From Candidatus Aenigmatarchaeota archaeon (GTDB lineage Archaea > Aenigmatarchaeota > Aenigmatarchaeia > CG10238-14 > SCSR01): a stretch of DNA of 64,000 bases. This document shows, one piece after another, positions 5,361 to 30,570 of the stretch (positions are counted from its first letter, which is position 1; the number at the start of each line of letters is the position of its first letter). The stretch is taken from the NCBI GenBank assembly GCA_038999725.1, contig JAWBWS010000001.1, forward strand, positions 96,001-160,000, read 5' to 3'. The position numbers and the translations under genes were made by a program. The notes below the pieces were generated by a model, which saw nothing but the letters and a program-made list of their open reading frames with translations, searched no databases and was not told the origin of the DNA.

Positions 5361-6608
5361 TTATTCACAACCTGTACACCAATCTCCATGTGGGCATATA
5401 CAATTACCATTGGACTCTATGCAAGATGTTTCCTTATAACAGTTACTTGACTTTAGCTTAACCATAGCGTGAACGCTGAAAGTCAAATGTCTGTCACCTG
5501 AAACTGAAAGCAAATATTTATTATCGGTGCAAGAGAAAACTGCCTCCATTGAGCCTTTTGTCTCGGCCCAAGCTTTACACTTTTTGTTCGAACAAATGTC
5601 AGAAAAATAAATTTGGCTTTTCGGTTTTTGGAAGAAAGAAATTGATAATGGGATATAACCTAAGCTCTTACTCTCCCTCATTCCAAAGAGAATGGATTTA
5701 GAGCATAGTTCTCCTGATGCTTCTACAAAACAATTGTTGCAAGCAGGTGCATCTTCCCAATTCATGCATCCAAATGTGGTAGAACAAGGTACAAGCTCAT
5801 GATAGCAACCTATCAGATTTGTTGTACATTTAACATACTCATCAAAAGAATCTTGCAAAATTTTTCTCGCATCTTCAATCACATTCTCCAAACATAACTG
5901 AAATTCTGGGCAAGTTGATGAGCAAAATGCACAACCTCCAATATAATTAGAATTTCCACAAGCACATATTTCTGAAAGACAGTTACACACACCTCTAACC
6001 AAAATTTCTGACCCAAGAGGTAACCACTCCCTAAATTTCCTGTACATGTACCAAAACCTGTTCTGTGCTATTTGCTCATAAACCTCATTTGAAGATGTGA
6101 CAGAATTTTCTTCAAGTGTTATGTTAATTTTACTGCCGTAAGCACCAACACTAAATTTTTCATCATTATCTCCAGAAAGCACAGAAATTTCATTTACATC
6201 ATAATCAACACAAGTTGAGCTTGTTATGTTTATGACTGGTAAATCTTGAAGCTTAAAATTTCTCAGGTATTCATTTAAACTCCTCCTTGTTTCTTCTGAA
6301 AGGAAAAATCTTACTTCATCCACTTTTGGCGAAACATCACCATTGCAGATCCAACTTCTTGGAAAGCCTGAACTGCTTGTCTGTCCACCTTGACCTGCAA
6401 CATATTTTGTCTCAGCATAGACAGCAAAGATAAGGGCATTTCTCGTGAATCCCTTAACATAATCCAGATATTTTGAAATTTTGGAAAGTATTGTCTCTTG
6501 AATAATCCTTTGGGATGAAGTTGTGGTAGAAAATGTTGATATCAACCAAAAGATGAAAAAAACTGCTACAAGAAAAACCAAAACTAACAGACTCGATTGA
6601 GATTTCAT
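5361..6608 (-). CDS. Pilin-like protein with Cys-rich C-terminal domain
   Basis: MKS|QSS plus hydrophobic helix (class III-like signal peptide); many Cys in the C-terminal half; last gene of the pilin operon. Confidence 0.65.
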   Translation of the reverse strand: MKSQSSLLVLVFLVAVFFIFWLISTFSTTTSSQRIIQETILSKISKYLDYVKGFTRNALIFAVYAETKYVAGQGGQTSSSGFPRSWICNGDVSPKVDEVRFFLSEETRRSLNEYLRNFKLQDLPVINITSSTCVDYDVNEISVLSGDNDEKFSVGAYGSKINITLEENSVTSSNEVYEQIAQNRFWYMYRKFREWLPLGSEILVRGVCNCLSEICACGNSNYIGGCAFCSSTCPEFQLCLENVIEDARKILQDSFDEYVKCTTNLIGCYHELVPCSTTFGCMNWEDAPACNNCFVEASGELCSKSILFGMRESKSLGYIPLSISFFQKPKSQIYFSDICSNKKCKAWAETKGSMEAVFSCTDNKYLLSVSGDRHLTFSVHAMVKLKSSNCYKETSCIESNGNCICPHGDWCTGCE

Positions 6609-6609
6609 C

Positions 6610-8142
6610 TCACCACACCTTTAAATGTAAGTAAATTATTTCTCCTCTCCAACTTGGTATTGGGATTGGGGCGAAAAATGTTGTAATCCTGTCTGTAGGC
6701 TTTGGTTTATAGCCAAACTCAACACTCTTTCCTGTTGTTATTGGAGGAGTATTGTAACTAGTGAAAAAGTTGTAAACATAGTGCCCTGAACCAAATTTAT
6801 TACTTATTTCAAGTTTAAGGTTCCTATCAAATCTTTGAATCTCGGTATTTAAACATGTAACCCAAATTTTGCCCAAGATGTCTATCCCCACCCCCGTTGG
6901 TTCTCTGCAAGTTTTGCTCCTGTCCAATTCATTACCATCTTTATCATATTTCACTATCAAGTCTTTTTCTGAAGAAACTGCATAGATGTTTTCCTCACCA
7001 TCTACCATTACTCCTCTACCTTTCCTTAATTCTGGTTTTTCTAGATTAAAGATGACTGAGCCTGTAGTTGTGTTGAGTTTTATTAGTCTTGAATCAGTCC
7101 AAGAATTAATTACAATACAATCTTCAGAATAGCATGGTGCTATTCCATACACCATATACCCTATATCTATTGGCTTAAAAATCTCAGTTGAAGGATTAAA
7201 CCCAAGTAATTTTTTTTGGTTAACAGCAGAAATCCAAACTATTCCATCTTTATCAACAAAACAACCATAAGGATTGACCCAAAGCTGAGCTAAATCCCAT
7301 TCATCTAAAATTTTACCGTCAATCGAAACTTTGAAGAATTTTTTCTCTCTATACAAACCAACATAAACAACATTTTCTTTTTCACTGAAACAAACTGCTC
7401 TAACACCTTCTGCCCCGAAATTTCCATAATCATTGCCCCCTAAAAAAACTTCTGCCAAAAGACATTCGTCCTCACCAAAGGGAAGAACCTCATTATCATC
7501 TATGATGCCATTGTTATTCAAATCTTCTGAAGTTTCAATTTTTCCATCACCATTCCTATCAACACATTGACCATTCTCTTTTAGACCAATCTTCACCAAA
7601 GTTCTTGTTCCTCTGTTACCAACCCACACATTCCCCTCTTTGTCTATAGATACTCTAGAGGGATTGCCATTTTTACCTTTTGGTACAGTATAATATCTCC
7701 CAAGCTCTCTTCCGTCAAGAATAGAAACTTTTGAAACAGAGTTACCAGAATCGGAATTTGGTATCCAGAGTACATGAAAAACTTCGGTCTTTGCTGTAAG
7801 ATTTAAGTTCCACTTATCTTGAAAGTGGAAATCGAAATACTCGTAAATCAATTTTGTCACATTTATTCCACCGTATTTTTCCCCGTAATTCACAATATCT
7901 TCTCCACCGTTAACAATCATATCACCAAGCATTTGGCCATAAGTTTTGTCGAATTTTGGAATTTTTATGTAAAAGAAGTTTCTTACAGCTTCAACCACCC
8001 TTTCATATTGGTATTGGGCGGAAACCATAGCCATAGATTCTTGACTCCTTGAAGAAGAAAAAAAGTAAGTGATGAAAAATAAGATTGAAACACCAACAAC
8101 TAAAATTAATAGATCCATTAATTCTGTGGTCTGGGCTTTCAC
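6610..8142 (-). CDS. Pilin-like protein with inserted beta-propeller (NHL/Vgb-like) and Dx[DN]xDG Ca-binding loops
   Basis: GTG start at 8142 (GTGA overlap, GGTGA upstream) gives MKA|QTTE plus helix. Blade repeats (IDKEGNVWV, VDKDGIVWI, VDGEENIYA, IDILGKIWV) and DRNGDGKIETSEDLNNNGIID. Confidence 0.75.
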   Translation of the reverse strand: MKAQTTELMDLLILVVGVSILFFITYFFSSSRSQESMAMVSAQYQYERVVEAVRNFFYIKIPKFDKTYGQMLGDMIVNGGEDIVNYGEKYGGINVTKLIYEYFDFHFQDKWNLNLTAKTEVFHVLWIPNSDSGNSVSKVSILDGRELGRYYTVPKGKNGNPSRVSIDKEGNVWVGNRGTRTLVKIGLKENGQCVDRNGDGKIETSEDLNNNGIIDDNEVLPFGEDECLLAEVFLGGNDYGNFGAEGVRAVCFSEKENVVYVGLYREKKFFKVSIDGKILDEWDLAQLWVNPYGCFVDKDGIVWISAVNQKKLLGFNPSTEIFKPIDIGYMVYGIAPCYSEDCIVINSWTDSRLIKLNTTTGSVIFNLEKPELRKGRGVMVDGEENIYAVSSEKDLIVKYDKDGNELDRSKTCREPTGVGIDILGKIWVTCLNTEIQRFDRNLKLEISNKFGSGHYVYNFFTSYNTPPITTGKSVEFGYKPKPTDRITTFFAPIPIPSWRGEIIYLHLKVW

Positions 8143-9536
8143 ACAATCACCTTTAAAGTATCGTCTTGATTTTTGGTGTAAACCTTGTATTTCCCAGGCG
8201 AAAGATTGAAAGATTCTATTTTTTTGTTGCAACCAAGTCTTTGGCAAATTTTCTTTCCCCCAATTTCTAGACATATTTTATTTACAGAAGATTCAAAAGA
8301 AAGTGGATAATGAAAGGTGAATGTATCTTGAAAATCTGTGTTTGTTAAACAACTCTTGTCTAAGAAACCTCTGAACTCTTCTAGCTCTCCGTCCACAATT
8401 GTTATAGTTATCTTTCCGGGGATTATCGTTGTTTCATCGACTAGAACATTTATTGGAGAGGAAATCGAAATAACTTGCCTTAAAGCTTCCTTTTCTGAAA
8501 ATTCCTCATCACCAAAACTCCATATCATGGGGGGAATTTCCACATCAAGATATTCTTTTGATTTTGAGACAAGCTCTTCACATGTTCTTGCATCAAAGAA
8601 TTGGCCATTGGTTAGTGATGCTATTTCTTCTAGTATTACCACATCCGCATCTGAACCATATGCAACTGTGTAAACTGGAATACCTGTGAATATATAGCTC
8701 TTCGAAACTTGGATGCTCGAGCCACATATGTTTTCTATTCCGTCAGTGAGCAAAACTATGGCTTGACCGCCATTTGATGTAGCATATTCGAACCCCTTTT
8801 TAAGGCCAGAAGCCATGGGCGTGGAATCGAGGGGATTGAGTGAAGAAATTTTAGCTTTAAGACTATTCCTTATTTGCAAGTTATTCAATTTTGTGAAGGG
8901 GAAAAGCAATTTTGGATTACAACTATTTTCATCTCCATAAGGAATTACGGCAATTTCACTTTCATCACTCATTTTTTCAATAAAGCCATACATGAAAAGT
9001 TTTAAACAACAGATTTTTGTGTCTTTAAGCACATCAGCATCACATTTACCACCAAAGTCAAACATACTTCCCGAGACATCTAGAACAAAAACCACTTTTT
9101 TACCATCTATTAGAGAAAATAATTTTTTGAAGACAGCTCCCTCGAAATTACTCCCTCTTATAAGTTCAAAAGAACTTATGTTTAAAGGAAGTGTCTCTAT
9201 TTTAACCTTATACCCAAACTCAAAATCCCTTGCACATGTGGGTTGCATGTCTTTGAATTTCAAGAAGTAGTCGAGTTTTTCCTTATCTAAAATTCTATGG
9301 GAACTAAGGTTTATTGCTCTTTTCTCCACACCACCTTTTTCCTTGTAGGCTAAGCAATTGATATTGCCTGTAAGAATATCCAACAATCTATTTGCCCTTT
9401 CTGTGAGCAACAGGCTCTTTTCTTGTTTAACAGAAATGAGGTTGGAGTAAAAAATTTCGTTGAGAAAAATTGCTATGGTAACTAAAACCAAAATAATGTA
9501 AATTCCCTTTATGAGCAAACTTGTTTGACCCCTCAT
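8139..9536 (-). CDS. Pilin-like protein with inserted von Willebrand factor A domain
   Basis: MRG|QTS plus helix; MIDAS residues FVLDVSGSM, STPM, VLLTDG; PVYTVAYG; IASLTNGQFF. Confidence 0.85.
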   Translation of the reverse strand: MRGQTSLLIKGIYIILVLVTIAIFLNEIFYSNLISVKQEKSLLLTERANRLLDILTGNINCLAYKEKGGVEKRAINLSSHRILDKEKLDYFLKFKDMQPTCARDFEFGYKVKIETLPLNISSFELIRGSNFEGAVFKKLFSLIDGKKVVFVLDVSGSMFDFGGKCDADVLKDTKICCLKLFMYGFIEKMSDESEIAVIPYGDENSCNPKLLFPFTKLNNLQIRNSLKAKISSLNPLDSTPMASGLKKGFEYATSNGGQAIVLLTDGIENICGSSIQVSKSYIFTGIPVYTVAYGSDADVVILEEIASLTNGQFFDARTCEELVSKSKEYLDVEIPPMIWSFGDEEFSEKEALRQVISISSPINVLVDETTIIPGKITITIVDGELEEFRGFLDKSCLTNTDFQDTFTFHYPLSFESSVNKICLEIGGKKICQRLGCNKKIESFNLSPGKYKVYTKNQDDTLKVIV

Positions 9537-10105
9537 CTCACAACCTTTATCTTATACATAAGAAAAATTATTAGCACAGCCATACTGCCAATAAGAATCA
9601 AGTATAGGTAAGTTGGAGTTGTTGGTGAAGAAGGAGTTGTAATGGAGCAATCATCTCTACAGTTTAAAAAGGTTTCTCCTCTCCATGGCTCACAGACGCT
9701 ATTAAAATTGCAAATTTTGATGGAAAAAATCAAACTATCACCATGATAAATTTCTATTCTCTCCGCCTCTTCAAAATAAGGTAAACGTATGTTGATTAAG
9801 ATTTTCTCAAGATCTTTTGGTTCTTCTGCGAATGTTTGATAATGGATTGTAAATGATATTCCCAAATTAGATTTGAACAACCTTTCATTTTTGTAAGAAA
9901 TGATTTGGATGTAATAGCCAGTATCGGTGGAGGGGAAATGGCTTTGCATCCCAACCTCTACAGAAAATTTTTCTAAAACTACAGTATCGTTCTTGAAAAT
10001 TATGAGTAGTAGAGAATAGATTTTTTCTTCTTTTATTTCTTGAGCTTTGATTGTGGAAAAAATGATTAGAAAGCTTAACACTAACACAATAAAGTTAAAT
10101 CTCAA
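9533..10105 (-). CDS. Secreted, C-terminally anchored protein with small Cys motif
   Basis: Class I-like signal peptide (IKA|QE), CNFNSVCEPWRGETFLNCRDDC, Thr/Pro linker, C-terminal TM helix; TTG start after GGTGA. Confidence 0.7.
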   Translation of the reverse strand: MRFNFIVLVLSFLIIFSTIKAQEIKEEKIYSLLLIIFKNDTVVLEKFSVEVGMQSHFPSTDTGYYIQIISYKNERLFKSNLGISFTIHYQTFAEEPKDLEKILINIRLPYFEEAERIEIYHGDSLIFSIKICNFNSVCEPWRGETFLNCRDDCSITTPSSPTTPTYLYLILIGSMAVLIIFLMYKIKVVR

Positions 10106-10109
10106 GTTA

Positions 10110-11381
10110 TCACCTACAATAATTACTTAACTCTCTCTCTAAATGAGCATAACTAGTTTGCCCAAATCTATTACCATAGCTACATCCTCTACCACAGTAA
10201 TCAAAACTGCACATTATGCTATTTTGTTCTGGTGTATTTGGACAACAATGTCCTACACCAGAACAACCAAATCTGCCTGTGTTACAAATGGTTGAAGGGC
10301 AGTTTGGACATAAAGAGTTGCCATATCCTTCGTCACACAAACCAAATGTATGTCCAAGCTCATGGCTACATACTTCTTCAATATTGCTGTCTGTCGTTAC
10401 AACAATTTCATAATTTTTTAAGGTATATCCAAGTACTCCACACACAGAAGACCCATGTTTAACACCAACTATCCTCGTGTATTTTCCACCATACCCCCAT
10501 TTATCTACACATTTTAGTAAATATTCAAAAGCGTTACATTCATCAGCTCTACAAATTTTATCTTCTATTGCTATTGCCTCAACATTCCATGGACATTTAG
10601 AAAGTGGTGTGAGAGAAACCCAAGCATTTTTACATTTTTGTGCCAATGAGTTGAAATTTGGAACTTGGGTATTCATTTGAACAAATAAGATGACAAATGT
10701 CGCTTTTTTACACCCAACATTCTCATCATTATATTCAATTTCACTCATACACCTTGGTTTACCCTCTTTTGGAGCTTCGCACCACTTTGGTTTATCAAGA
10801 GGGCAGCAATGTCCTTTGGTACAAATTGGTGTCTCAAATGGACAACATTCTCTCCCCAAAGAATCTTTTTTAACTTCTTGTGCCCCCACACAAATTCTCT
10901 CGCTAGGACAAATTGGTGCTTCCTCACATTTTTTGCTAGTTTGGTTACAATAGCCTGAACAACAAAGTAAGGAATCTGCACAAAATTCTCCAAATTCTAA
11001 ACATTTACACATTAAAACTATCTTTCCATCTTTTTTTAACAAAAGGATTTTTTCACAATCTTCAAATCGATTTTCCACAATCTCAAGAGCTCTTGAGAAA
11101 CTACTTTGCTTTCCAGAAATTTTATCAAAAAGTTTAACCACATTATTCTCAATTTCAATCCTGTATTGTTTTATGCTCGGATAATAAACAAAGGCTACAT
11201 CACCTGTTGTTGCTATAGCTCTATCAACTATAGCTTCCAAATCTTTTGCAAAAGATGAAACAACTTCTTCTTCACCTAGCTCTTGTTGAGCGATGTAAAT
11301 TCCTCTCAATTGAAAAACTGTAATACCAACTGCAATCAAAACTCCAATACTCAAAATTATTTCTGTTGCTATAGCTTTCAC
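10110..11381 (-). CDS. Pilin-like protein fused to a Cys-rich linker and a metzincin-type zinc metalloprotease
   Basis: MKA|IATE plus helix; HELGHTFGLCD (HExxHxxGxxD, 10332-10364); downstream SIM Met-turn. Confidence 0.8.
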   Translation of the reverse strand: MKAIATEIILSIGVLIAVGITVFQLRGIYIAQQELGEEEVVSSFAKDLEAIVDRAIATTGDVAFVYYPSIKQYRIEIENNVVKLFDKISGKQSSFSRALEIVENRFEDCEKILLLKKDGKIVLMCKCLEFGEFCADSLLCCSGYCNQTSKKCEEAPICPSERICVGAQEVKKDSLGRECCPFETPICTKGHCCPLDKPKWCEAPKEGKPRCMSEIEYNDENVGCKKATFVILFVQMNTQVPNFNSLAQKCKNAWVSLTPLSKCPWNVEAIAIEDKICRADECNAFEYLLKCVDKWGYGGKYTRIVGVKHGSSVCGVLGYTLKNYEIVVTTDSNIEEVCSHELGHTFGLCDEGYGNSLCPNCPSTICNTGRFGCSGVGHCCPNTPEQNSIMCSFDYCGRGCSYGNRFGQTSYAHLERELSNYCR

Positions 11382-11409: not shown

Positions 11410-11931
11410 TCAAGTGATTGTAATTAAAACTTCATCTCCAAAGCTCTTATTTATCAAAACTTCATAATCTCTTCTTGGTGATCTTCCCAAAATTTTGTTC
11501 ACAGCAACAAAAATATCTTCATGCTCAGGCAAAACTCCCAAATAAGGCATTTGAATCTTACAAGGAAAGTGTTTTGGTGGTTCTTGACAACATCTTAAAT
11601 ATTGTTCATCTTTAAATTGCAAACAAATATTCTTTCCATAACTAACCTCTTGATTTTTTATTTTACCTAAGACAGTTGGTAAGATGTTGTTGACATCTTC
11701 TGTTGCATAAATTACCCTTACCGCCATTGGGAAACTATATTTTTTGGTCAAAGAATTTCCCAATTCTTGAACACAAACTACATTCACACTATAGCATAAA
11801 TCTGAAAATTGTGTTAAAGCATCTTGCCTTTGAGAATAGTTTATTGTGTTAGAAAGTAAAGTGTAACCAATTACCATAGCAAGAACAGCAACTACTATTC
11901 CACCAAAAACATAAACCCACATTTCAGGCAT
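11410..11931 (-). CDS. Pilin-like protein without a basic leader
   Basis: MPEMW plus hydrophobic helix, amphipathic continuation, Cys pairs; lies in the pilin operon. Confidence 0.6.
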   Translation of the reverse strand: MPEMWVYVFGGIVVAVLAMVIGYTLLSNTINYSQRQDALTQFSDLCYSVNVVCVQELGNSLTKKYSFPMAVRVIYATEDVNNILPTVLGKIKNQEVSYGKNICLQFKDEQYLRCCQEPPKHFPCKIQMPYLGVLPEHEDIFVAVNKILGRSPRRDYEVLINKSFGDEVLITIT

Positions 11932-11956: not shown

Positions 11957-12475
11957 TTATTTTCCCCACTTCTTGTATAGCTCTTCATAAGATTTCTTTT
12001 TACCTCCTTTTTTCAAAAAGAAAAAGTAGGATAAAAAGAGAATTACCAATATCAATATTACAACTAAGATTATTAGTGTATAATCAACCCCACCTCCCTC
12101 GCTAGTTGGTGTGGGTTTAGTGGTTGTGGTTGGAAGTGTTGTTGTTGGTTTAGTGGTTGTGGTTGTTTCTTCAGCCATTCTTACTGTTATTAAAGTACAG
12201 TCTGATTGTGTTTTACCATCTTCACATAGAGCTTTTAAGTAATAGCTTCTTGCAGACTCTGGACTCCATTTCAAGTAGCCATTAGAAAATACAAACTCGT
12301 AGTCTGGCATCATGGTACACGTTGCTGAGGAAAAAATATCTACAATACCAGAATCACAATCAGTTATTGTACATCTACATTCTCCAACAAAGCAATTTTT
12401 GCAAATTACCTCTGCATAGACTAGAGGTTGTGATAGAAGAATTGTTATCAAAAATATGATGCTAATCTTTTTCAT
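11957..12475 (-). CDS. Cell-surface protein with Cys module, Thr-rich linker and C-terminal anchor
   Basis: Signal peptide (VYA|E), CKNCFVGECRCTITDC, TTTTTKPTTTLPTTTTKP, TM helix and basic tail. Confidence 0.75.
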   Translation of the reverse strand: MKKISIIFLITILLSQPLVYAEVICKNCFVGECRCTITDCDSGIVDIFSSATCTMMPDYEFVFSNGYLKWSPESARSYYLKALCEDGKTQSDCTLITVRMAEETTTTTKPTTTLPTTTTKPTPTSEGGGVDYTLIILVVILILVILFLSYFFFLKKGGKKKSYEELYKKWGK

Positions 12476-15400
12476 CAACATGTTATATTCCTCATTTCTC
12501 CTAGTTTAGACCAAAGAATTGGGTTTTTTGTATCCGAGGCTTTGAAAGCTTTCCAAGAAATCAAATATTTACCTGAACCCAATTCTTTACAATCTATAAG
12601 ATAACTTGCAGTACCCTCACCAATCGGTGCTACATACTTTTTGTTCACAGCTTTACCATTTTTGTTTAAAGTGAGAACAATTACTACTTCCTCTTCAAAT
12701 TTGTTTGAATAATCTAACTTGATTCTGTAAGAACTATCTAAACTGGTTAAGTGGAAATTGCTTAAAGAAAAGGTTTTTCTTGGCTCGATTTTTCCTCCTA
12801 TCACAATTTCTCTTTCTACATGAACTACTGGATTGTAACACACAACACTCACCTCAACAACTCCTGTCTTATCTGAAATAAAAGATGTGGCGAAATCTTT
12901 GGTATCTATCTTTTCTCTCCATTTGAGTAATGTAGTACCCAAAACAGCACTAAATCTACCATCACTACAACCTCTTACTCTACATGTACATGGTTTAAGA
13001 ACTTCACAATTTTTATCACACTCAAGGAAAGGTTCTTTGACCTCTAGCGTGTATTGGGTTGTTTCTATTTTGGAATCTTTAAAACATAGTGCTGTGATTA
13101 AAATTTTTCCAGAAGCATTTGGCTCAAATTGTATGGTAGTTGGGGGGAGCTGAAGGGTTATTGTGGAGCTTAAAGGTTTTGCTTCTTTGTTCTGTAGCAT
13201 CCACAAACCGTTCTGACAAGCTGTAGTTAATGTACATTCACATTCTGATCTTGCATAACACTCTTCACATTGAATTCCTGTAGGTAATGTGGGTGCAGTG
13301 GTGGTTGTGGTTGGGAGTGTTGTTGTGATAGGACAACTAACAGAAAGTTTTACACTTCTTTCTTGATTACCATAACAAGCATAATAAGTTCCTGCATTAC
13401 TGTTTGAAGTAACAACAAAAGTGGTTGAACTTGATGTTGAACCATCGGAAGTAGAAATTGTGGCAACTTCTTGGCCAGAGCAACTATTCATCCTTATCGA
13501 AACTACTTGAGAACCACAGTTAGAGCTAGAATAGGTTATTGAAGCTTTTATGGTTGAAGGGCAAGTTGAAACAGAATCTGGAGTCAAAGAAAAGGAATTA
13601 AGCGAGAATGTACATGAAGGTGGTGGAGATGTTATGACAATATAACTGCCAGTAGATTCTCCATAGTAACTTGTTGCTTCGCTATTTGTTACTTTTACCT
13701 TGAATGTATAAGTTCCTGGTGAAGTTGTGGGGATGGAAGTAACACTTATAGTTAAAGAATTTGTTGAACCAGGAGAAATAGTTAGTGAAGAACTACTTAA
13801 GCTACAACTCCATCCTGAAGGACAATATGTCACTAATAAATCGAAGGAGGAAGAGCCACAAATAGAATTATCATTATTTTTTACACTAACAGTATAAGTT
13901 AAAGTTTTACCAGCCGAGCTCGATTGGGATGAGGGAGTAATTGAAATTGAAGGGTTAGCTCTACCACAATCGAGAAAGTTGGCTATCTCATTTATTGGAT
14001 TGTTTATAGTTATTGTAGCTGAACTTAATGTGCCTGAATAACATCCTGAACCAGAACAAGTCCAACCACTAAAAATATAACCTGGGTTGGGAGTAGCGGA
14101 TATTGTAATGCTTGACCCCATATCATACCATCCTGACTGGGGGGATGTTTTTCCTCCCATGGATGGGTTTACCGACATTTGTAAGTAATACTGAGTTTTG
14201 TAACTTGCTATTTTATTATCGCTTGAGCTTAATGAGCCGGAGCAGCTTGCTGTGCATATGTATTGAGTGCCTGTTGTATTGCTAACGATAGAGTCATATT
14301 CATAATTGACAACCCCGCTTAATCCTGAAACTGTTATACTTGAAGATGTGGATGTATATCTAATTCCCCCCACTTTTACGCCCCACAATACACCGAAAGG
14401 TATGCCTGATTGAGAGAATGTCACTGAATATGAAGGTGGTGGGGCAATTGTATAGCTTTCTATATTTCCCTTTTTAGTCTCATAGCCTGATTTTGAACAT
14501 AAACAGTACCAATCATATGTGCCTGGAGATAAAGTAGATGTTTGATATCTGTATGAAGGTTTTTCTAATTCAGAAATATAGTTTGTAGGGTATGGGATGT
14601 TATTAATATACACCTTACAATCTGCATCTCCTATTCCTTTTCCAGTTATCTTATCATAGTAACTGCAATAAAAACTAATTAGTGTTCCTTGTTGTGATGG
14701 ACTTTGGGGTTCTACCCATTGAGAAAGAGTTGTTGGATAACCAGAACTACTACAAATAAGTTGGCCCGATGATCCATATTTAACACCATCAACAAACACA
14801 TCGTAATTGTAACTTCCTATTGATACTTCCCAATTTTTTCTCATGGATAAAGGAGTGAAACTAGAAAACTTAATCTCACCAGTTTTGGTATCTTTAACTT
14901 CAATTTTTCTACCCTCACAATTGGAACTCGCTTCAAAAAATATCTCACAAGTATCCATACCACTTAAGATAAAGTTATAGGAGATTGAGCACGGCACAAC
15001 TCCTCTTTCTGGATCACAGAAATTGTACTTGGGATCATAACATTCATATTGTTTAACAGATTCTTGAGAATATGAGCAACATTTTTCTCCACTTGAACAA
15101 ACCTTTCCACCACAATATATTTCTTTACAACTTCCTCTTTCACATGTGCATTCTTCCACAGCTACACATATCCCTGGATTACCATATAAATAACAACACT
15201 TGGAGTAAGACCCTGTTTTACAATCGCTTTCACTTAATATTCTACAATACTCACTAAAACTTTTATAACATGTACAAGGCCAACTACAATAACCTCCCTC
15301 AAAACAACCTTTGTTCATCCAGCATTCATACCACCAACATCCTGCACCAATACAAGAAAAAGCATCGGCGTAGCCGCTACAAGTGGTAAAAGTTTGGCCG

Positions 15401-15537
15401 CCGGTTATAGTATATGGAATTGAGGGAAACAATAAATTTTTTAGCCAGTCAATTAGTGATTGTGCCTTAGCTTCTTTTGTAAAAACAAGTAGAATTAGTA
15501 TGAATAAAAATGGGAGCAAAGTTCGCTTTTTCCACAT
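12475..15537 (-). CDS. 1020-aa secreted mosaic adhesin-like protein
   Basis: Signal peptide (AKA|Q), Cys-rich N-terminus, Ig-like segments (YSVTFSQSGIP; ISATPNPGYIFSGW; TLTYTVSVKNND..CPSGWS), Thr-rich linker and two Cys modules. Confidence 0.75.
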   Translation of the reverse strand: MWKKRTLLPFLFILILLVFTKEAKAQSLIDWLKNLLFPSIPYTITGGQTFTTCSGYADAFSCIGAGCWWYECWMNKGCFEGGYCSWPCTCYKSFSEYCRILSESDCKTGSYSKCCYLYGNPGICVAVEECTCERGSCKEIYCGGKVCSSGEKCCSYSQESVKQYECYDPKYNFCDPERGVVPCSISYNFILSGMDTCEIFFEASSNCEGRKIEVKDTKTGEIKFSSFTPLSMRKNWEVSIGSYNYDVFVDGVKYGSSGQLICSSSGYPTTLSQWVEPQSPSQQGTLISFYCSYYDKITGKGIGDADCKVYINNIPYPTNYISELEKPSYRYQTSTLSPGTYDWYCLCSKSGYETKKGNIESYTIAPPPSYSVTFSQSGIPFGVLWGVKVGGIRYTSTSSSITVSGLSGVVNYEYDSIVSNTTGTQYICTASCSGSLSSSDNKIASYKTQYYLQMSVNPSMGGKTSPQSGWYDMGSSITISATPNPGYIFSGWTCSGSGCYSGTLSSATITINNPINEIANFLDCGRANPSISITPSSQSSSAGKTLTYTVSVKNNDNSICGSSSFDLLVTYCPSGWSCSLSSSSLTISPGSTNSLTISVTSIPTTSPGTYTFKVKVTNSEATSYYGESTGSYIVITSPPPSCTFSLNSFSLTPDSVSTCPSTIKASITYSSSNCGSQVVSIRMNSCSGQEVATISTSDGSTSSSTTFVVTSNSNAGTYYACYGNQERSVKLSVSCPITTTLPTTTTTAPTLPTGIQCEECYARSECECTLTTACQNGLWMLQNKEAKPLSSTITLQLPPTTIQFEPNASGKILITALCFKDSKIETTQYTLEVKEPFLECDKNCEVLKPCTCRVRGCSDGRFSAVLGTTLLKWREKIDTKDFATSFISDKTGVVEVSVVCYNPVVHVEREIVIGGKIEPRKTFSLSNFHLTSLDSSYRIKLDYSNKFEEEVVIVLTLNKNGKAVNKKYVAPIGEGTASYLIDCKELGSGKYLISWKAFKASDTKNPILWSKLGEMRNITC

Positions 15538-16471: not shown

Positions 16472-16476
16472 TTTAA

Positions 16477-16923
16477 TTACCCACAAATTAGAACATCACT
16501 ATTTTTAATTTCTCTCCTTGTAATATTAATGCTTTCACCCGTCAAGAAAGAGTTGTCACAGCAAATATAAACTGAATGTGTGTTTGTTTCTAAGAATTTG
16601 CATTCGGTAAGCTTAATCAGGTTTATCCCTTTATCAATTTCTTTTACAACTCTTTCTATATCTTCAAAGGTAACATCTTGACTTAAAGTGGAATGAAAAT
16701 TGTTGCATTGATCTGTCAAAAAACCATAAAGAACTACTTTAAGATTTTCTAAATTTATTTTACTGTTATTGTATTGGGAGCAAGTGTATTTAGCGTTAGT
16801 AAAATCTTTTGGTCTCAATATGAACTCTGGTTTGATTATACCTGTGATGAAAGCAATTGAAATACAAATCACAAAAACTGTTATGGTTATAGCAGAAATA
16901 TATTCTAAAGCTATCCCTTTCAT
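16477..16923 (-). CDS. Pilin-like protein
   Basis: MKG|IALEY plus hydrophobic helix. Confidence 0.8.
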   Translation of the reverse strand: MKGIALEYISAITITVFVICISIAFITGIIKPEFILRPKDFTNAKYTCSQYNNSKINLENLKVVLYGFLTDQCNNFHSTLSQDVTFEDIERVVKEIDKGINLIKLTECKFLETNTHSVYICCDNSFLTGESINITRREIKNSDVLICG

Positions 16924-16924
16924 C

Positions 16925-18252: not shown

Positions 18253-20367
18253 CTAAGCTTGTGTAATTGTTATTCTCAACCCCCAAAAGACTAGAAGAGC
18301 AAGTAAGTTAACAAAACCGTATACTATTATAGCCTTTATGAGATTTTGGGAAATCTCCCAGTCTCTTGCAGTCTTATCAAAACCATTTTCTATTCCACTC
18401 AAAAGTAGGGAGAATAAAGTTACTGCTTCTACTGTGTAAATTCCTATAGCTGCTTGAAGAACTGTTAATGGCATTATATTTTCAAAACCACCGACCAAAA
18501 TGTCTATGAATGATTTTGCTCCTTCTCCGACACCTCCTGGAAAGAGTGAAGCTCCAAACATTTTTTCTATTTCCCCAAGTTTTTCAGCAAGTATCCTTAA
18601 CATTTCAAGGATGAAGATTGCTAGAGCACCTATAATTCCCGTTATCATCGGAACTATAAAACTTGCTTGTAATTTAAGTGAAGACCTTGTCTCTTCTAGC
18701 AGCTCTCTTATCTTTTCTTCAATTGCGTAAACATTCTCAAGGTATCCAGCTATAGTTTTTGCAATCATGCCCAAAAGTACCGCACTTTTCTCAGACGCAT
18801 CAGCAAGAATTTTCATTATATCATCTATGAGAACTGAAGGATAGAACTTGAGTATTCCTTCTTTCTTATCAAACAAAGCTCTTTTAAATGTCATACCAAA
18901 ATTCTTGATGTTAAGATAAAGTGTGTGAAAGAAGAAATAAGTTGGTCTTTTTTGCATCCCAAGTTTCTCATATTCTTCCAAAGTCTTCTCTATTCCAACC
19001 TCTATGGGATAACCTTCAGAAAGATAATTGCCTAAAGAGAAGAGGCCGAGCCTAAATTCCTCTTCTATATTCTTAATCTCATTCCTTATCTTGATTCTTT
19101 GAAAGCTTCTTAAGTAGAAATAAAGAATGCTTATTGCAGCAAAACCTGCTGTTATTGAAAATGTGGCAAAAAGATTTTCTGGACTCATCTTAGCTTCATT
19201 CATCAGAACACATTTCTTTGGCGATACTCCTGTTGGACAACCAAGCTTAAAGATCAAATCTGGAGGGGGGTAATTTAGGTTTATTATAAGGTCTATAAAG
19301 TGGAAAATTCCTGGTAGCATCACCAAAAAGCCTATGAGAATTGATAAGATGATTATGGGCATCCACAATTTTGCTTTACCTATACTTACTTCAAAATAAT
19401 TTTCTGGTGGCAATTTCGGATGTTTACTTATATCTGGAACCATGAAAGCTCCTGGTCTTTTGTGAAGAATTCTATTGATTAAGAAGTAGTTGAAAAGGGG
19501 TAAAATGAAGATGTAGCCTAGAATTAGTTGAGGTGTGCTAATCTGTTGGTGGAGAAAGATTGAAAGCATGGGGAACATTATCAGCCCCATCACAGGCAAT
19601 AACAAGCCCATAACATGTAAGAGCATGATTGGTGATGTTATCTCTTCTACATACTTTTTCATCTTCCCATGGGTGGATTCAAGTATGAAACTTAAAGCCT
19701 TCCTCAAAATTTCTTCTCTTCCTTTTTCTGTTGGCTCTATCAACACACCATAAATCAAGCTCAAAGCTCTCACAAAATCTTCATTCCACCAAACCCATTT
19801 TTGTGTGTATTGTCCTAAAGCATCCTCCACTGTCCTATATTTTCCAATCTGTAAATCCCACATTGCTTTTTTGATATCTTCTGTTATTGGGCCCTTTGAA
19901 TGTTGAACTGCAAAGTTGATTGCATTTTCTAAGCTTGGGTTTAACTTTAAGTAAATTGCCATATAAAGAATGATTTTTATGGCTTCATCCCCTGCTTGTA
20001 CTCTTAACACATTAGCTTTAAAAGAAGGGTAAGTATAAACGTACCAGGCCAAACCAAGAGGAATTAGAAGTAAAAAGGCAGTTGCTGAAATATCGTTAAG
20101 GTAAATAATTAAAGGTAAAATAGAAAGGAGAGAAAGAAGAAAGATAAGAATAGTTGCAGAAAAAACTCCTGTTGGAGAAACATTTAAAGAAGAAAAAACT
20201 ATGTGGAATTTCAATTTTTCTTCCATTGATTTTGATGGTGTTATTCCCAAACTTTCAGCAAACTTACAAAATTTTTCGTAAAAGCTTTTAAATCCTCTTG
20301 TTCTTTGCTCTTGAAGAAGGAATTCAAGGTATTCTTTCGAGATTCTTTTTTTCAACTTTTCTTCCAT
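18253..20367 (-). CDS. Type IV pilus membrane platform protein, copy 1 (fused TadB/TadC, ArlJ-like)
   Basis: Two TM-plus-cytoplasmic repeats (YMAIYLKLNPSLENA; YLSEGYPIE); clearly paralogous to 34232-36262. Confidence 0.8.
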   Translation of the reverse strand: MEEKLKKRISKEYLEFLLQEQRTRGFKSFYEKFCKFAESLGITPSKSMEEKLKFHIVFSSLNVSPTGVFSATILIFLLSLLSILPLIIYLNDISATAFLLLIPLGLAWYVYTYPSFKANVLRVQAGDEAIKIILYMAIYLKLNPSLENAINFAVQHSKGPITEDIKKAMWDLQIGKYRTVEDALGQYTQKWVWWNEDFVRALSLIYGVLIEPTEKGREEILRKALSFILESTHGKMKKYVEEITSPIMLLHVMGLLLPVMGLIMFPMLSIFLHQQISTPQLILGYIFILPLFNYFLINRILHKRPGAFMVPDISKHPKLPPENYFEVSIGKAKLWMPIIILSILIGFLVMLPGIFHFIDLIINLNYPPPDLIFKLGCPTGVSPKKCVLMNEAKMSPENLFATFSITAGFAAISILYFYLRSFQRIKIRNEIKNIEEEFRLGLFSLGNYLSEGYPIEVGIEKTLEEYEKLGMQKRPTYFFFHTLYLNIKNFGMTFKRALFDKKEGILKFYPSVLIDDIMKILADASEKSAVLLGMIAKTIAGYLENVYAIEEKIRELLEETRSSLKLQASFIVPMITGIIGALAIFILEMLRILAEKLGEIEKMFGASLFPGGVGEGAKSFIDILVGGFENIMPLTVLQAAIGIYTVEAVTLFSLLLSGIENGFDKTARDWEISQNLIKAIIVYGFVNLLALLVFWGLRITITQA

Positions 20368-27604: not shown

Positions 27605-28591
27605 ATGGAAGATGTTAGCCTGGTGCTTGTTATTTGTCTAATAGCTGTTATTGTTATTGGCTGCTACTTAATTTATGAAAGTTTAAAAACCAAGGTTGTT
27701 ATCGAGGTTTCAAAGCCGAGCATACCAAAATTTGCTGATCTCAATTTCTTTTTTGGAACTGAAAGTGAAGAAGGTCTCCCCACACGATTTTTGGATATAA
27801 AAAAAGGATATTTTGAGTTTCCTTTCAATGTTAAAAATTTGTTCAACGAAAAAGTTAGGGTTAAAATCTGTCCAAAAATTGTTACTAAAAGTTTAGATTT
27901 GACATCTTCCATAGAAATTGATTGTTTAGAACTTGAATTGAATAAAGGTGAAGGTAAAAAATTGAATATAAAAATCCCATTCTCTGGAAAAGAAGAAGAA
28001 CTTTTAAATTCAACGAAAACTGTTTTAAGAGTAGAAGTGGAGTATACGGGCCTAATAAGCAGCTTCTGTGATTTGTATTTATTCGTTGGCTACCCATACT
28101 GTGAAGTTTCAGATTCAGCTTCCCTCAAAATATCACCAGACTTAAGACCTAACCCAATAAATTTGGATAAAGATGAAAAATTCTCTGTTTATCTAAAGAT
28201 AAGAAAATTTTCAGAATTCCTTGAACTTGAAAGGGTAGAAATCTTACCAATTGAAACCAAAGTCAGGATAATTTCTTATGGTAAAGAAAGGGTAGAAACA
28301 ATAACCCTTGAAGAAAATTATAGCTCTGAGTTATCTTATGTTGTTTCTTTGCCTGAAGACTACATCTTCTTACATGAGTTCAATGCCCCAAAGATAAGAG
28401 TCGAAGAAGGTGAAAAAAAAGAATACATAAATATAAGATGTGAAGATGAAGCCGTAAAGAAACTTAAGATTTGTGAGCTTAGATTTAAAGATGAAAAAGT
28501 CGATCAAGCATTCAGGAAACTTACCTTAGAATTAAAATTATTTTTCCTAAGCAAAAGATCAATAGAAGAGAATCTGCAGGTAACTAAGTAA
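27605..28591 (+). CDS. Membrane-anchored beta-rich surface protein
   Basis: N-terminal TM helix; FNVKN and VEVEY motifs resembling the upstream gene. Confidence 0.6.
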   Translation: MEDVSLVLVICLIAVIVIGCYLIYESLKTKVVIEVSKPSIPKFADLNFFFGTESEEGLPTRFLDIKKGYFEFPFNVKNLFNEKVRVKICPKIVTKSLDLTSSIEIDCLELELNKGEGKKLNIKIPFSGKEEELLNSTKTVLRVEVEYTGLISSFCDLYLFVGYPYCEVSDSASLKISPDLRPNPINLDKDEKFSVYLKIRKFSEFLELERVEILPIETKVRIISYGKERVETITLEENYSSELSYVVSLPEDYIFLHEFNAPKIRVEEGEKKEYINIRCEDEAVKKLKICELRFKDEKVDQAFRKLTLELKLFFLSKRSIEENLQVTK

Positions 28592-28940
28592 CTTGGCAGT
28601 TACAGCTCTTTAAACAAAGGTCAAAATTCTTGTACTCGAAGAATTCGCAAACTTCTCCAAATGTTGCTTTGTTTATATCAGCATTTCTGTTGTTCGGGTC
28701 TGGTAGCCTTTTGCCTATTTGATCATAAAAGATTCCGCTCTTTTCATATTCTAAGTTTGGCATGTAAGCGTTGATGCATCCTCTTACATTCATTTCTCTA
28801 CAAAGCTCTTGATGCCCTGTTATTCTAAATATCCAAGTTTTAAACGGCCCAAACTGACCGCCAAACAAAGCAATAACAGCTACTGCCACCACTATGATTA
28901 TTACAAGAGCTGCAACTATCCAAAAAGTTTGCTCAGCCAT
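28584..28940 (-). CDS. Pilin-like protein with 6-Cys domain, no basic leader
   Basis: MAEQTF plus helix; Cys pattern shared with 33018-33269. Confidence 0.65.
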   Translation of the reverse strand: MAEQTFWIVAALVIIIVVAVAVIALFGGQFGPFKTWIFRITGHQELCREMNVRGCINAYMPNLEYEKSGIFYDQIGKRLPDPNNRNADINKATFGEVCEFFEYKNFDLCLKSCNCQVT

Positions 28941-28990: not shown

Positions 28991-29404
28991 TTAAGGCGAA
29001 AACCTAAACTTCACAAACTTTGATAAATTTACCTCTTTTTCTAAATCCTTGTAATTATATGTTATCTTACCTTCAACTATGAAAAAATCATCTTCTTGAT
29101 AAGCATTCAAAAATTCAAAATGTGAATTAGAATTTTTTAAATTAAGGGTAATTGTTTTGGATATCTCTTTTACAATATCTCCGTACGAATAACCTCTCCC
29201 TCTACTTTCCAAGCATTCGTTTTCTAAATATTTCCTGAAATAGAATTGGGAATACTCCACTTCATTCACGATTTCAGAATATTTTCTAGATATTGTTGAA
29301 ATTTCTATCTCACTATCCAAAAGCTCACCTAAAAAGTAAAAACCTATAACCATCAAAATACAAACAATGAATATAGCAACTATATAGCCTATTACTCCTT
29401 TCAT
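28991..29404 (-). CDS. Pilin-like protein
   Basis: MKG|VIG plus helix. Confidence 0.75.
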   Translation of the reverse strand: MKGVIGYIVAIFIVCILMVIGFYFLGELLDSEIEISTISRKYSEIVNEVEYSQFYFRKYLENECLESRGRGYSYGDIVKEISKTITLNLKNSNSHFEFLNAYQEDDFFIVEGKITYNYKDLEKEVNLSKFVKFRFSP

Positions 29405-29790
29405 ACCATAACCTCTATTTTTATTTTTTTATTGTCTTCAACTAGTTCGAGAGATGTTTTTTCTTCAGAAACTAGCTTAGGATTTCCTAAAATCTTATCA
29501 GCTACTGTAATTTTATAAGAAGGTAGGACTTTATTTATCTCCGATTCTATTTCAGCTTTATCGATTTTCCCTTCTAAATAATCTAAAATTTTTTCACTCA
29601 TATCAGACTGGGCTATAGCTATAGAAAGTGCTTGGGATTTAAGTGGATTGTAAATTGGTTTATAGATTATGTCAACTTCTATCTTTATTTGTAAGAAAGA
29701 CATGATAACATACAATATGCTACAAAATATTATGAAAATCACTAGGAAAATCACAAAGTTAAATATTTTAGGCAAAAGCTGGCCCTTAAT
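29401..29790 (-). CDS. Pilin-like protein, probable ATT start
   Basis: Frame reads TAG GCT ATT AAG GGC CAG CTT TTG, i.e. (M)KG|QLLP. The track's TTG start at 29775 loses the leader. Confidence 0.7.
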   Translation of the reverse strand: MKGQLLPKIFNFVIFLVIFIIFCSILYVIMSFLQIKIEVDIIYKPIYNPLKSQALSIAIAQSDMSEKILDYLEGKIDKAEIESEINKVLPSYKITVADKILGNPKLVSEEKTSLELVEDNKKIKIEVMV

Positions 29791-30193
29791 AGCCTACCAC
29801 CATTTTCCCAAATTTGAATTTTCCATTTGAATAAATCGTAATTGGAAGTGTAATCTTAACTCTATTCTTTGATGATCCAAGCCTCCATATGGTTTTAAAA
29901 TCAGTTATTTCTACTTCAAAGTAATTTGAATCAAAGCAAAGATCTCCTCGATTCAATTTTTTTTCATCAAAAATGCCTCTGTAAAAATTTCCAGCCTCAT
30001 CTTCATATATCAAACATTTATTGCCCATGATTGAGTTAATTCCATCAAAAATTATTCTGTTATCAATGGTGTCCTTAATTTTTATGTTATAAACTGTAAA
30101 CAGTAAGAATAAACCAAGTAAAAAGGCTATTGTTAAAAGATTTTTAAGTATGTCTATCATTTCTTCCGGTATTATGAAAGCTTGTCCCTTCAT
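29786..30193 (-). CDS. Pilin-like protein
   Basis: MKG|QAF plus helix; ATGA overlap; paralogue of the vWA pilin scaffold. Confidence 0.8.
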   Translation of the reverse strand: MKGQAFIIPEEMIDILKNLLTIAFLLGLFLLFTVYNIKIKDTIDNRIIFDGINSIMGNKCLIYEDEAGNFYRGIFDEKKLNRGDLCFDSNYFEVEITDFKTIWRLGSSKNRVKITLPITIYSNGKFKFGKMVVGY

Positions 30194-30570
30194 TCTATCC
30201 AAACCTCATCTCCCACTTTCTTTATGGTTATAAATGTATTAGGACAATTTGAGCTGCTGTCCTTAATTTTGACATAATTTGGAGAAATTATTTCATTGGA
30301 ATAAGTGTCATCTCCTATTCTCACAATAACTTTACCTTCAGAAATTTTAACATCACAAGATTTTCCAACAAGAATTTTTGACGAAACATTAAAAGTTGAA
30401 GATGAAATGGAAGAAATTACACTTGCCAAGGTTTCTGAAAAAAGTTTACTGTTCATCCAATTCCTTTTGAATAGGGATAAACCAACAATGTAAGAAGAGT
30501 ATATTATTAACAAAAGAATAACAATGTTAGCAAAAAACTGTAAAAATTGGATTAACAAAGAGCCTTTCAT
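30190..30570 (-). CDS. Pilin-like protein
   Basis: MKG|SLL plus helix; resembles the N-terminal domain of the protease pilin. Confidence 0.75.
   Translation of the reverse strand: MKGSLLIQFLQFFANIVILLLIIYSSYIVGLSLFKRNWMNSKLFSETLASVISSISSSTFNVSSKILVGKSCDVKISEGKVIVRIGDDTYSNEIISPNYVKIKDSSSNCPNTFITIKKVGDEVWIE

Follow-up and report, generated by a model that had tools for sequence, protein, structure and literature searches.

Organization of the Two Type IV Filament Loci

This study concerns two cassettes of genes encoding pilin-like proteins, located within a 64,000-nucleotide stretch of DNA (hereafter, the window; positions 96,001 to 160,000 of contig JAWBWS010000001.1, GenBank assembly GCA_038999725.1) of a Candidatus Aenigmatarchaeota archaeon. 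A preliminary reading of this DNA, made from the letters and the open reading frames (ORFs) only (the sequence-only reading), had proposed that four small pilins match, in order, four large ones, i.e., that a four-gene cassette was duplicated, with one copy left plain and the other "armed" by grafted effector domains, and that the archaeon builds two pili, one of which displays these domains at its tip for host recognition and envelope breaching. All eight genes involved (30190, 29786, 29401, and 28991, as well as 10110, 8139, 6610, and 5361; genes are named here after their lower coordinate in the window) are real ORFs, located on the - strand exactly where they had been placed.

The genome examined (730 kb in 9 contigs) belongs to the Aenigmatarchaeota, a DPANN lineage, and its housekeeping genes (encoding RadA, RPA, ribosomal proteins S3Ae and S15, AglB/STT3, and RuBisCO) are archaeal. 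The DNA runs containing the stretch 5361-11381 carry the label of hot springs metagenome, and no RNA runs for this stretch were present among the run holders listed; contigs from four runs represented related strains only.

The window comprises two type IV filament (T4F) loci, i.e., locus A (5361-22177) and locus B (28584-38504). Locus A is composed, in order, of a TadC-like platform gene, five small pilin-like genes, a gene for a 1020-amino acid (aa) Cys-rich surface protein, two small genes, and the large (armed) cassette 10110 > 9533 > 8139 > 6610 > 5361. Locus B begins with a gene for a TadA/FlaI-type ATPase, followed by a paralogous platform gene, a gene for an 818-aa membrane protein, and the small (plain) cassette 30190 > 29786 > 29401 > 28991 > 28584. 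The general features of both loci are presented in Table 1; in the case of 6610, the start codon is most likely the GTG at 8142 (MKAQTTEL) rather than the one at 8274.

Table 1. Genes of the two T4F loci of the window and the predicted parts of the armed proteins (vWA, von Willebrand factor A)
Coordinates	Strand	Length (aa)	Feature
10110..11381	-	423	Family 1, armed form
11010..11381			Part of 10110: pilin-like module, residues 1-124, followed by a Cys-rich linker
10113..10706			Part of 10110: metzincin-like domain, residues ~226-423
9533..10105	-	190	Interposed non-pilin gene; N-terminal Sec-like signal, Pro/Thr-rich linker, C-terminal membrane anchor
8139..9536	-	465	Family 2, armed form
9171..9536			Part of 8139: N-terminal scaffold, residues 1-122
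8568..9170			Part of 8139: vWA insert, residues 123-323
8142..8567			Part of 8139: C-terminal scaffold and C-terminal beta domain, residues 324-465
6610..8142	-	510	Family 3, armed form (length from the GTG at 8142)
7786..8142			Part of 6610: N-terminal scaffold
6730..7785			Part of 6610: beta-propeller insert
6613..6729			Part of 6610: C-terminal scaffold
5361..6608	-	415	Family 4A; pilin-type N-terminus (MKS/QSS...), then a conserved Cys-rich body (26 Cys)
11410..11931	-	173	Further pilin-like gene, "0A"
11957..15537	-	174 and 1020	Two secreted or anchored surface proteins, the 174-aa one with a Thr-rich linker and a C-terminal anchor
12475..15537	-	1020	Secreted protein with 58 cysteines
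15569..18286	-		Five mutually related small pilin-like genes (17852, 17326, 16925, 16477, 15569) with KG/xxLE-type N-termini
18253..20367	-	704	TadC/FlaJ-like platform protein of locus A; T2SSF E=2.7e-5, 24.6 bits (cut-off 25.2)
30190..30570	-	126	Family 1, plain form
29786..30202	-	138	Family 2, plain form; MKGQ at residues 4-7
29401..29775	-	124	Family 3, plain form
28991..29404	-	137	Family 4B
28584..28940	-	118	Fifth small pilin-like gene of locus B
30574..33030	-	818	Membrane protein
34232..38504	-		Platform and ATPase genes of locus B
34232..36262	-	676	Platform protein of locus B
36267..38504	-	745	TadA/FlaI-type secretion ATPase

Pairing of the Plain and Armed Families

At the level of single sequences, the resemblance within the claimed pairs is not above chance. 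In BLASTP searches among the 19 proteins of the loci, none of the four pairs was significant (E values of 1.3 for 29786/8139, 3.2 for 28991/5361, 9.2 for 30190/10110, and 9.7 for 29401/6610), and therefore family profiles were used. The family alignments were drawn from 2131 ORFs of about 100 related loci, gathered in three sets. The first comprised 27 loci surrounding homologues from 40 related genomes; the second, of 30 loci, came from searching the class with the 29786 profile, with matches in 87 of 370 genomes; and the third, of 40 loci, surrounded the class-wide matches of the insert-free 8139 scaffold profile (69 of 370 genomes). Six A families (i.e., those of locus A) were then compared with five B families using hhalign, each with and without the N-terminal helix. 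As unrelated pilin families reached values of up to 86% when the helix was retained, the helix-free control was essential.

This comparison recovered a clear diagonal. The 30190 and 10110 families (family 1) matched with a probability of 97% with the helix and 94% without it, the 29786 and 8139 scaffold families (family 2) at 98% in both variants, and the 29401 and 6610 scaffold families (family 3) at 98% and 97%, respectively, whereas all 26 other A-B family pairs fell to 1% or less once the helix was removed. Iterative searches gave a consistent picture. Jackhmmer started from 29786 takes in the whole 8139 family, the protein of the window included, and started from 10110 it takes in two proteins of the 30190 family along with plain family-1 genes of 139-146 aa, located directly upstream of plain 8139 orthologues. 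Moreover, the alignment of 29786 and 8139 carries the motifs CLxY, iLDxxKL, WxFG, and PVxI..GxmxI, by which the sequence-only reading had recognized this pair.

The third pair had been proposed mainly on the basis of gene position and leader sequence, and its confirmation depended on the depth of the profiles. With shallow profiles (27 loci) it scored 0.5-0.7%, and it rose to 97-98% only once the third-position genes of B cassettes of other genera had joined. These genes (153-197 aa) join 29401 with E values down to 6e-14, and their profile matches members of the 6610 family with E values from 3e-6 to 8e-4; in the resulting alignment, both proteins are covered over their full length on either side of the propeller site. 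One competing assignment, in which 8139 and 6610 were each other's closest relatives (98% profile similarity), was rejected, since it was caused by propeller-bearing proteins with the 8139 scaffold in the alignment; with the inserts excised, the value was 87% and concerned the helix only.

In the case of the fourth pair, 28991 and 5361, the families are each other's best match, but the values were 79% with the helix and 10% without it (4-5% with the shallow profiles). The addition of 20 more homologues gave 86% and 13%, respectively, over 33 columns, with the alternatives at 1.1% or less, and the alignment covers only the alpha-1 helix, the very segment quoted in the sequence-only reading. Family 4B, represented by 28991, is small: only 27 relatives were found among 5.8 billion proteins, and every named one bears the label Aenigmatarchaeota or Aenigmarchaeota. 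The two remaining pilin-like families had no partner across the loci, as the 28584 family reached 0% in all helix-free comparisons and none of the locus A families paired with it, and gene 0A found no counterpart among the B families. By profile comparison, three of the four claimed pairs are confirmed, and the two T4F loci share the ordered minor-pilin-like families 1, 2, 3, and probably 4.

Gene Order and Age of the Cassettes

The order 1-2-3-4 on one strand was found in 25 of 55 A loci (2-3-4 in 34) and in 15 of 34 B loci (1-2-3 in 18); in most of the loci outside these counts, contig ends or the 1.5-kb flanks cut the cassette short, and one genome family is rearranged (loci L012, L019, L020, L087, and L089). 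Both the 29786 and the insert-free 8139 profiles match in 28 genomes. In the tree of family-2 scaffolds, the A and B types form separate clades with good branch support (98 for the 57 A rows and 96 for the 30 B rows). As these clades stay separate across the class, the duplication is old, and the A and B sets are ancient paralogues. The proposal of a duplicated cassette holds insofar as there are two collinear paralogous sets, but the duplication is not a recent one, and the fourth pair is unproven.

The same tree contains a third group, composed of three larger B-like proteins of 236-516 aa (L031:2019-3569 (-), L030:8947-9852 (+), and L032:2193-2903 (-)), of which the one from L031 bears a NosD beta-helix and an SLT lytic transglycosylase domain. 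Relatives of about 244 aa occur in five genomes of the genus to which the archaeon of the window belongs, and none is present in its own genome.

Insertion of vWA and Propeller Modules in Families 2 and 3

The insert of 8139 is a vWA domain (Pfam VWA, PF00092, E=8.9e-13, residues 148-321). It carries residues of the metal ion-dependent adhesion site (MIDAS) type, i.e., DVSGS at 153, DSTP near 237, and TDG at 264, in agreement with the DxSxS...T...D pattern. The AlphaFold2 (AF2) model of the protein (pLDDT 91) matches the vWA pilus adhesins PitA and SpaC (E of about 2e-10) and also the vWF A3 domain; in this model, the vWA domain is looped out of the scaffold via a low-confidence linker (residues 125-132), and an extra C-terminal beta domain follows. 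The family alignment places the insert just before the WxFG motif, exactly where the sequence-only reading had located it.

Insert-free orthologues of 8139 match its residues 1-122 and 324-460 contiguously, and the orthologues found at the same syntenic position are either bare (252-300 aa) or carry vWA, a 6610-type propeller, a lectin, or unrecognized inserts. The propeller occupies the same insertion point in loci L012, L019, L020, and L086-L089. Among the 57 rows of the family there were 19 proteins with vWA (13 verified with Pfam and 6 assigned by end-to-end alignment with the protein of the window), 17 plain ones, 7 with a propeller, and 14 others. The class-wide matches of the insert-free scaffold profile, found in 69 of 370 genomes, fall into about 25 contiguous matches in ORFs of 239-301 aa and about 40 matches in ORFs of 406-874 aa, the latter split near model position 126/130. 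A search of 1.84 billion representative proteins yielded 196 matches of this profile at E<=0.001, and the best 150 of them comprised 47 proteins of 225-320 aa, 84 of at least 360 aa, 16 shorter fragments, and 3 in between; split matches again broke near position 126/130. Within these 84 large proteins, VWA was recognized in 50, a propeller in 4, and a Laminin_G_3 lectin in 1, with the remaining 29 not matching any Pfam family.

The modules are also exchanged within the family. The tree built from the scaffold columns (57 rows) requires at least 11 changes of cargo state, with a possible minimum of 3 and a mean of 30 after shuffling. The most telling example is found in L012, where two tandem family-2 paralogues, 12231-13619 (+) and 14610-16454 (+), share 112/114 (98%) and 135/143 (94%) identical residues in the N- and C-terminal scaffold parts, respectively. 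Their inserts are nevertheless unrelated, one being vWA and the other a propeller, as if the cargo had been exchanged very recently, or the gene duplicated and its insert then swapped.

Family 3 provides a second insertion site, occupied in the window by a propeller. The insert of 6610 matches the propeller families Mala_s_1-like (2.3e-7) and SGL (1.8e-6) of Pfam, and orthologues of 154-156 aa match residues 3-120 and 473-511 only. The 47 rows of this family comprised 25 proteins of 200 aa or less, 7 with a propeller, and 15 with unknown inserts of 230-380 aa. Because insert-free orthologues exist at the same locus position, the comparisons support the view that vWA and propeller are true insertions into the small scaffolds of the large set.

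Enzyme Modules of Family 1 and the Cys-Rich Family 4

In family 1, the module is fused rather than inserted: the first ~125-160 residues are kept, and the C-terminus changes. The C-terminal domain of 10110 is predicted to be metzincin-like, with an HExxHxxGxxH/D-type zinc site (HELGHTFGLCDE at residue 340) and a Met-turn-like NSIMCS at 387. Both motifs are conserved in 17 orthologues, across which H340 and H344 are invariant and E341 nearly so, and the family profile matches adamalysin-type and archaemetzincin structures in the PDB (E=6e-6 to 5e-3). Other members bear Peptidase_C25 (L006 and L088, by Pfam), papain C1 (L069, L084, L089, and L100, with E values down to 3e-43), SLT with M14 (L013 and L067), SLT with M23 (L075), SLT with Reprolysin_5 (L066), GH5 with M23 (L068), or Reprolysin_2 (L063; at 7e-10, the strongest metzincin-like match). 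The copy of the window itself has a putative protease and no SLT. The search for variable cargo in related genomes, suggested along with the original proposal, has in this way revealed changes in families 1, 2, and 3.

The 9533 family (33 members) is a conserved neighbor of the family-1 gene. Most A loci have it between families 1 and 2, and it is missing where family 1 has the bare form of 139-146 aa (L017, L093, and the second copy in L018). The Atlas model of 9533 resembles the N-terminal beta-sandwich of M64/M66 peptidases and hypothetical proteins of the candidate phyla radiation (TM 0.47-0.49), which is a lead only. 9533 may be an accessory domain that was split off, or it may act together with the enzyme cargo or inhibit it.

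The Cys-rich part of 5361 is of another kind. The family has 51 members, with 9 invariant and 18 nearly invariant columns, mostly Cys, and only C-terminal extensions vary (up to 618-704 aa). As the Cys-rich body is conserved through the whole family, it is not grafted, variable cargo, and on this point the picture of grafted effector domains does not hold, although it does for the vWA and propeller inserts and for the metzincin-like fusion. No relative of 5361 was found in Pfam, NCBIfam, or the PDB by sequence or profile search. Atlas leads include relatives in Iainarchaeota, Aenigmatarchaeota, and Nanobdellota as well as a weak TadE-like structural row, and one Nanobdellota cluster with a 5361-like N-terminal part carries VanY/Peptidase_M15 domains. 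Armed carriers may extend beyond the Aenigmatarchaeota.

Pilin-Like Character and Neighboring Assembly Genes

The N-termini of the cassette proteins follow the archaeal class III pattern, M-[KR]-[GAS] and then a hydrophobic helix, with Gln usually occupying +1 and an acidic residue one of the positions +4 to +6 in families 1A and 3A. A crude signal-peptide rule ([KR][GAS] followed by a hydrophobic segment) was passed in the A families by 38/47 (6610), 44/57 (8139), 39/51 (5361), and 27/41 (10110) members, and in the B families by 11/15 (28991), 11/20 (30190), and 14/23 (29401), in comparison with 3/33 in the interposed non-pilin 9533 family used as a control. Relatives of 28584 have [KR][GA]/LTTxE N-termini with a Glu5-like residue in 8 of 12 cases. 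The copy present in the window begins with MAEQTF... and has no K/R-G site, so either its start is atypical or the start codon was miscalled.

In the AF2 models, a helix of about 47-56 residues precedes a beta-sheet: a helix at residues 13-59 and six strands in 29786 (pLDDT 84.9), and a helix at residues 2-57 and strands in 8139. Both proteins share the predicted element order, with a long helix and two strands, a short helix and two more strands, and then, past the insertion point, two long strands. Traces of known pilin families are N-terminal only (ComGD E=0.041, ComGE E=0.019), and DUF361 gave no match at E<=0.01.

Each cassette stands by a platform gene. The two platform genes are paralogues (E=9.6e-64) and the only two of this type in the genome, and the ATPase gene adjoining locus B matches T2SSE (1.9e-14) in Pfam and the TadA-family (3.6e-36) and FlaI (5.3e-35) models in NCBIfam. 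One gene of an A24 prepilin peptidase was found on contig C3, with a Peptidase_A24 match that passes the cut-off (E=9.2e-10). Contig C2 encodes three further T2SSE ATPases (589-600 aa).

The five small pilin-like genes of locus A, which are candidates for filament subunits, match each other in hhalign (e.g., 16925-17326 at 97%, and 86% without the helix) and have no Pfam match. Gene 0A precedes the cassette in most A loci, and its family counts 39 members. The 1020-aa protein, encoded between the small pilins and the armed cassette, has orthologues of 700-1015 aa and matches the InlB B-repeat (Flg_new_2, 9.1e-12) and the NEW3 domain (NPCBM_assoc, 7.3e-6) of Pfam. The 818-aa membrane protein, which has no Pfam or NCBIfam match, precedes the B cassette in all B loci examined. 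Between the loci (22487-28591) there are six genes of 281-406 aa with no Pfam family at E<=1e-4. Outside the two loci, an IF-2B-like gene, a gene of the RuBisCO large subunit, and a Glycos_transf_3/PYNP_C phosphorylase gene are arranged side by side (1140-4988 (+)), and we take this trio to be that of the archaeal AMP/nucleotide-salvage RuBisCO pathway.

Possible Function of the Armed Cassette

Starting from the homology and order of the genes, the insertion and fusion sites, the turnover of cargo, N-termini of the pilin type, the predicted helix-plus-sheet fold, and the proximity of platform and ATPase genes, we propose the following scenario. The A set uses as carriers the same scaffolds that the B set keeps bare. 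The single A24 peptidase would cut after [KR]-[GAS], mostly leaving Gln at +1, as in the EppA substrates of Methanococcus, and the four proteins would come together in a priming or tip complex of low abundance, comparable to GspHIJK or FimU-PilVWX. The small pilins of locus A would form the pilus, and the cargo would therefore be carried at its distal end, where vWA and the propeller would attach to a partner cell and the enzyme would degrade the envelope of that cell locally. Recombination would replace the cargo as partners change, and the bare B set would have the same structural role with nothing mounted on it. The large size of the cargo speaks for the tip rather than the shaft, an argument that has also been made for bacterial modular pilins in the text of PMC8179133. 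Taken as a whole, the display of cargo at a pilus tip by an armed minor-pilin-like set, acting on a partner cell, seems to us about evenly poised between being right and being wrong.

A more far-reaching version can also be formulated, in which the armed set would be an archaeal counterpart of the minor-pilin tip complex serving as a plug-and-play mount, with a bare four-part chassis for ordinary pilus priming and an armed one whose members would take adhesins into fixed internal loops and lytic enzymes onto one C-terminus, the cargo being swapped by recombination at the time-scale of strains in an arms race with the partners. It would be present in Aenigmatarchaeota and, following the Atlas leads, in other DPANN, some forms would attach to and breach bacteria, as the murein hydrolases (SLT, M23, M14) of orthologous carriers would imply, and the protease-armed form found here would target the proteinaceous envelopes of archaea. 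With all of these parts joined, this version is tentative, and we lean towards doubting it.

A number of observations weigh against the display at a pilus tip. The fourth pairing, a reciprocal best match lying within the alpha-1 helix only, is no more than suggestive. The protease assignment of 10110 has a single Pfam match, to Reprolysin_2, which is sub-threshold (E=0.0033, 17.8 bits vs. a cut-off of 27), and a recognizable enzyme was absent in 16 of the 32 family-1 orthologues scanned. In the 29786 family only 3 of 33 members pass the N-terminal rule, because acidic residues lie between MKGQ and the hydrophobic helix. Searches with the 29786 model retrieved no solved pilin from the PDB with Foldseek (best E 0.29), and in the wide search with VIA the best match (Z 5.4) was a sensor domain and no pilin appeared; the profiles of the 29786 and plain 8139 families found no sequence relative in the PDB, and the small B-cassette proteins matched nothing in Pfam or NCBIfam. 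As there is no match to a curated or solved pilin, the term "pilin" rests on the N-terminus, the predicted topology, and the gene context, which together give good but not complete support to the pilin-like character of the families. Finally, no ATPase gene adjoins locus A, and the sole ATPase of the matching type in the genome adjoins locus B. Both cassettes may depend on one motor and, since locus A lacks an ATPase of its own, that the archaeon builds two pili is itself something we infer.

Part of the same evidence would fit surface display without a pilus tip, and bulky cargo could equally be exposed on the cell surface without any filament. In this alternative, the N-terminus only anchors the protein in the membrane or in a short bindosome-like pseudopilus, and the cargo scavenges peptides and wall debris for a metabolically poor cell, with no attachment to a host and no attack on it. 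Archaeal proteins with class III signal peptides (SPIII) that are not filament subunits are known, for example the sugar-binding proteins of Sulfolobus and the bindosome, and 4397 candidate SPIII binding proteins are counted in the text of PMC13705601. Apart from the lack of an ATPase in locus A and of solved pilins among the structural matches, the enzymes themselves agree with such a role, as general proteases, GH5, and peptidoglycan hydrolases would also suit the digestion of necromass. A co-assembling set, however, better explains why the four families are kept in one order by platform and small pilin genes. Moreover, neither the two loci nor their surroundings contained a substrate-binding-protein domain or an ATP-binding cassette (ABC) transporter gene, an adhesion module is the most frequent cargo (the vWA with MIDAS residues, in 50 of the 84 large members noted above), and the closest structural matches of this vWA are pilus adhesins. 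Surface display of this kind is the main alternative, and we consider it rather less likely than display at a tip.

Far less probable, in our opinion, is a secretion pseudopilus, i.e., a piston similar to that of the type II secretion system (T2SS), from which enzyme and adhesin domains are cleaved off and released. Four ordered minor-pilin-like genes presumably resemble the GspH-I-J-K arrangement, and the long Cys-rich linker between carrier and enzyme in family 1 could be a cleavage region; still, vWA and the propeller are inserted between scaffold strands, so that their release would destroy the carrier, and no secretin or other T2SS-specific component was seen in the window. That there is no specific relationship at all, with the ordered pairing due to chance and to features common to all pilin-like proteins, agrees with the BLASTP results and with the high values that helices alone can produce, but it is already refuted for three pairs, which keep 94-98% without the helix against 1% or less for the 26 non-paired combinations, merge in iterative searches, and align over the whole small protein and across the insertion point, and its probability is negligible.

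Comparison with Known Systems

In bacteria, minor pilins form tip or priming complexes, such as FimU-PilV-W-X of type IVa pili, which act with the adhesin PilY1 (vWA and a beta-propeller), and GspH-I-J-K of the T2SS. The cassettes described here are similar in having four co-encoded minor-pilin-like genes in fixed order and, as putative adhesion modules, vWA and a beta-propeller, which are built, unlike in the PilY1 system, into two different pilin scaffolds. Homology with GspH-K or PilV-X was not detected in the Pfam, NCBIfam, and PDB sequence searches, which were the only tests made for it. A further likeness concerns GspK, in which a domain is inserted into the pilin beta-sheet, as noted in the text of PMC8179133.

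A close parallel is provided by the modular type IV pilins of bacteria, exemplified in the text of Raynaud et al. 2021 (PMC8179133) by PilB (pilin and vWA) and PilC (pilin and lectin) of Streptococcus sanguinis. There too, a small carrier bears a grafted module, vWA with MIDAS leads the cargo, lectins and peptidases occur as well, and a carrier-plus-effector logic has been proposed for display at the tip. The families of the window conform to this pattern in that the same carrier is found with and without a module, or with different modules. Nevertheless, the bacterial proteins were found via IPR012902 and are mostly C-terminal fusions, and the main text of that article does not contain the word "archaea", whereas the archaeal carriers have no Pfam or NCBIfam model, two of them take cargo at a fixed internal loop, and three or four carriers form an ordered cassette accompanied by a bare paralogous one in the same genome. 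The modular pilin principle would in this way be extended from bacteria to archaea.

Among archaea, the Epd pilus of Methanococcus maripaludis is comparable. Its EppA substrates have a leader ending in Gly, with Gln+1 and Glu+5, and four minor pilins are needed (Nair et al. 2013, PMC3875500, in the part of its text consulted); signal peptides ending in Gly/Ala/Ser, Gln+1 with an acidic residue after it, and, presumably, several minor pilins acting together are shared with the cassettes studied here. The Epd pilins differ in being small and bare, bar a galactose-binding SPIII protein reported in the text of a 2026 census of archaeal T4F (PMC13705601). The same text classifies the Epd pilus as "system 1", states that many DPANN genomes encode system-1-type pilins, and describes ordered T4F loci as rare in DPANN. 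According to its text, class III signal peptides are also found in archaea on non-pilin cargo, namely solute-binding proteins. In the Sulfolobus bindosome described there, as proposed for the armed cassette, a pilin-type N-terminus mounts a functional domain on a T4F-type machine, but its solute-binding proteins adjoin ABC transporters, while here putative adhesins and hydrolases lie inside a T4F locus with no such transporter near.

With regard to the enzymes, large extracellular lytic-transglycosylase proteins of up to 3000 aa are described for Pacearchaeota and Woesearchaeota in the text of Castelle et al. 2021 (PMC8204110). Like the SLT-bearing carriers, they are SLT-type murein hydrolases of DPANN and have been read as a hint of bacterial partners. 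No link to pili is drawn in the part of that article consulted, where the word "pili" is absent, whereas here SLT is combined with M14, M23, or a metzincin on the family-1 carrier (L013, L066, L067, and L075).

We found no description of the present system in the literature searched, which covered the 2026 census in its main text, where the terms vWA, protease, hydrolase, and "fused" do not occur; loci of this kind may be listed in its supplements (S10 Fig on DPANN loci, S4/S5 Tables). Two features had no counterpart in the literature found, namely the insertion of cargo at fixed internal loops and the bare paralogous cassette, which shows the carriers unloaded. This work adds the collinear paralogy of the bare cassette with the loaded one, the finding that family 3 has an insertion site as well, the catalogue of family-1 enzymes, and the counts across the class and across 1.84 billion proteins.

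How DPANN archaea, few of which are cultured and whose genes are mostly annotated as "hypothetical", recognize, hold, and open their partner cells is the question that this apparatus addresses, and the locus is a concrete, testable candidate for a DPANN cell-contact apparatus. As the modules differ even among close relatives, partner specificity could be read from them, and the murein hydrolases on orthologous carriers bear on the question of whether some DPANN have bacterial hosts.

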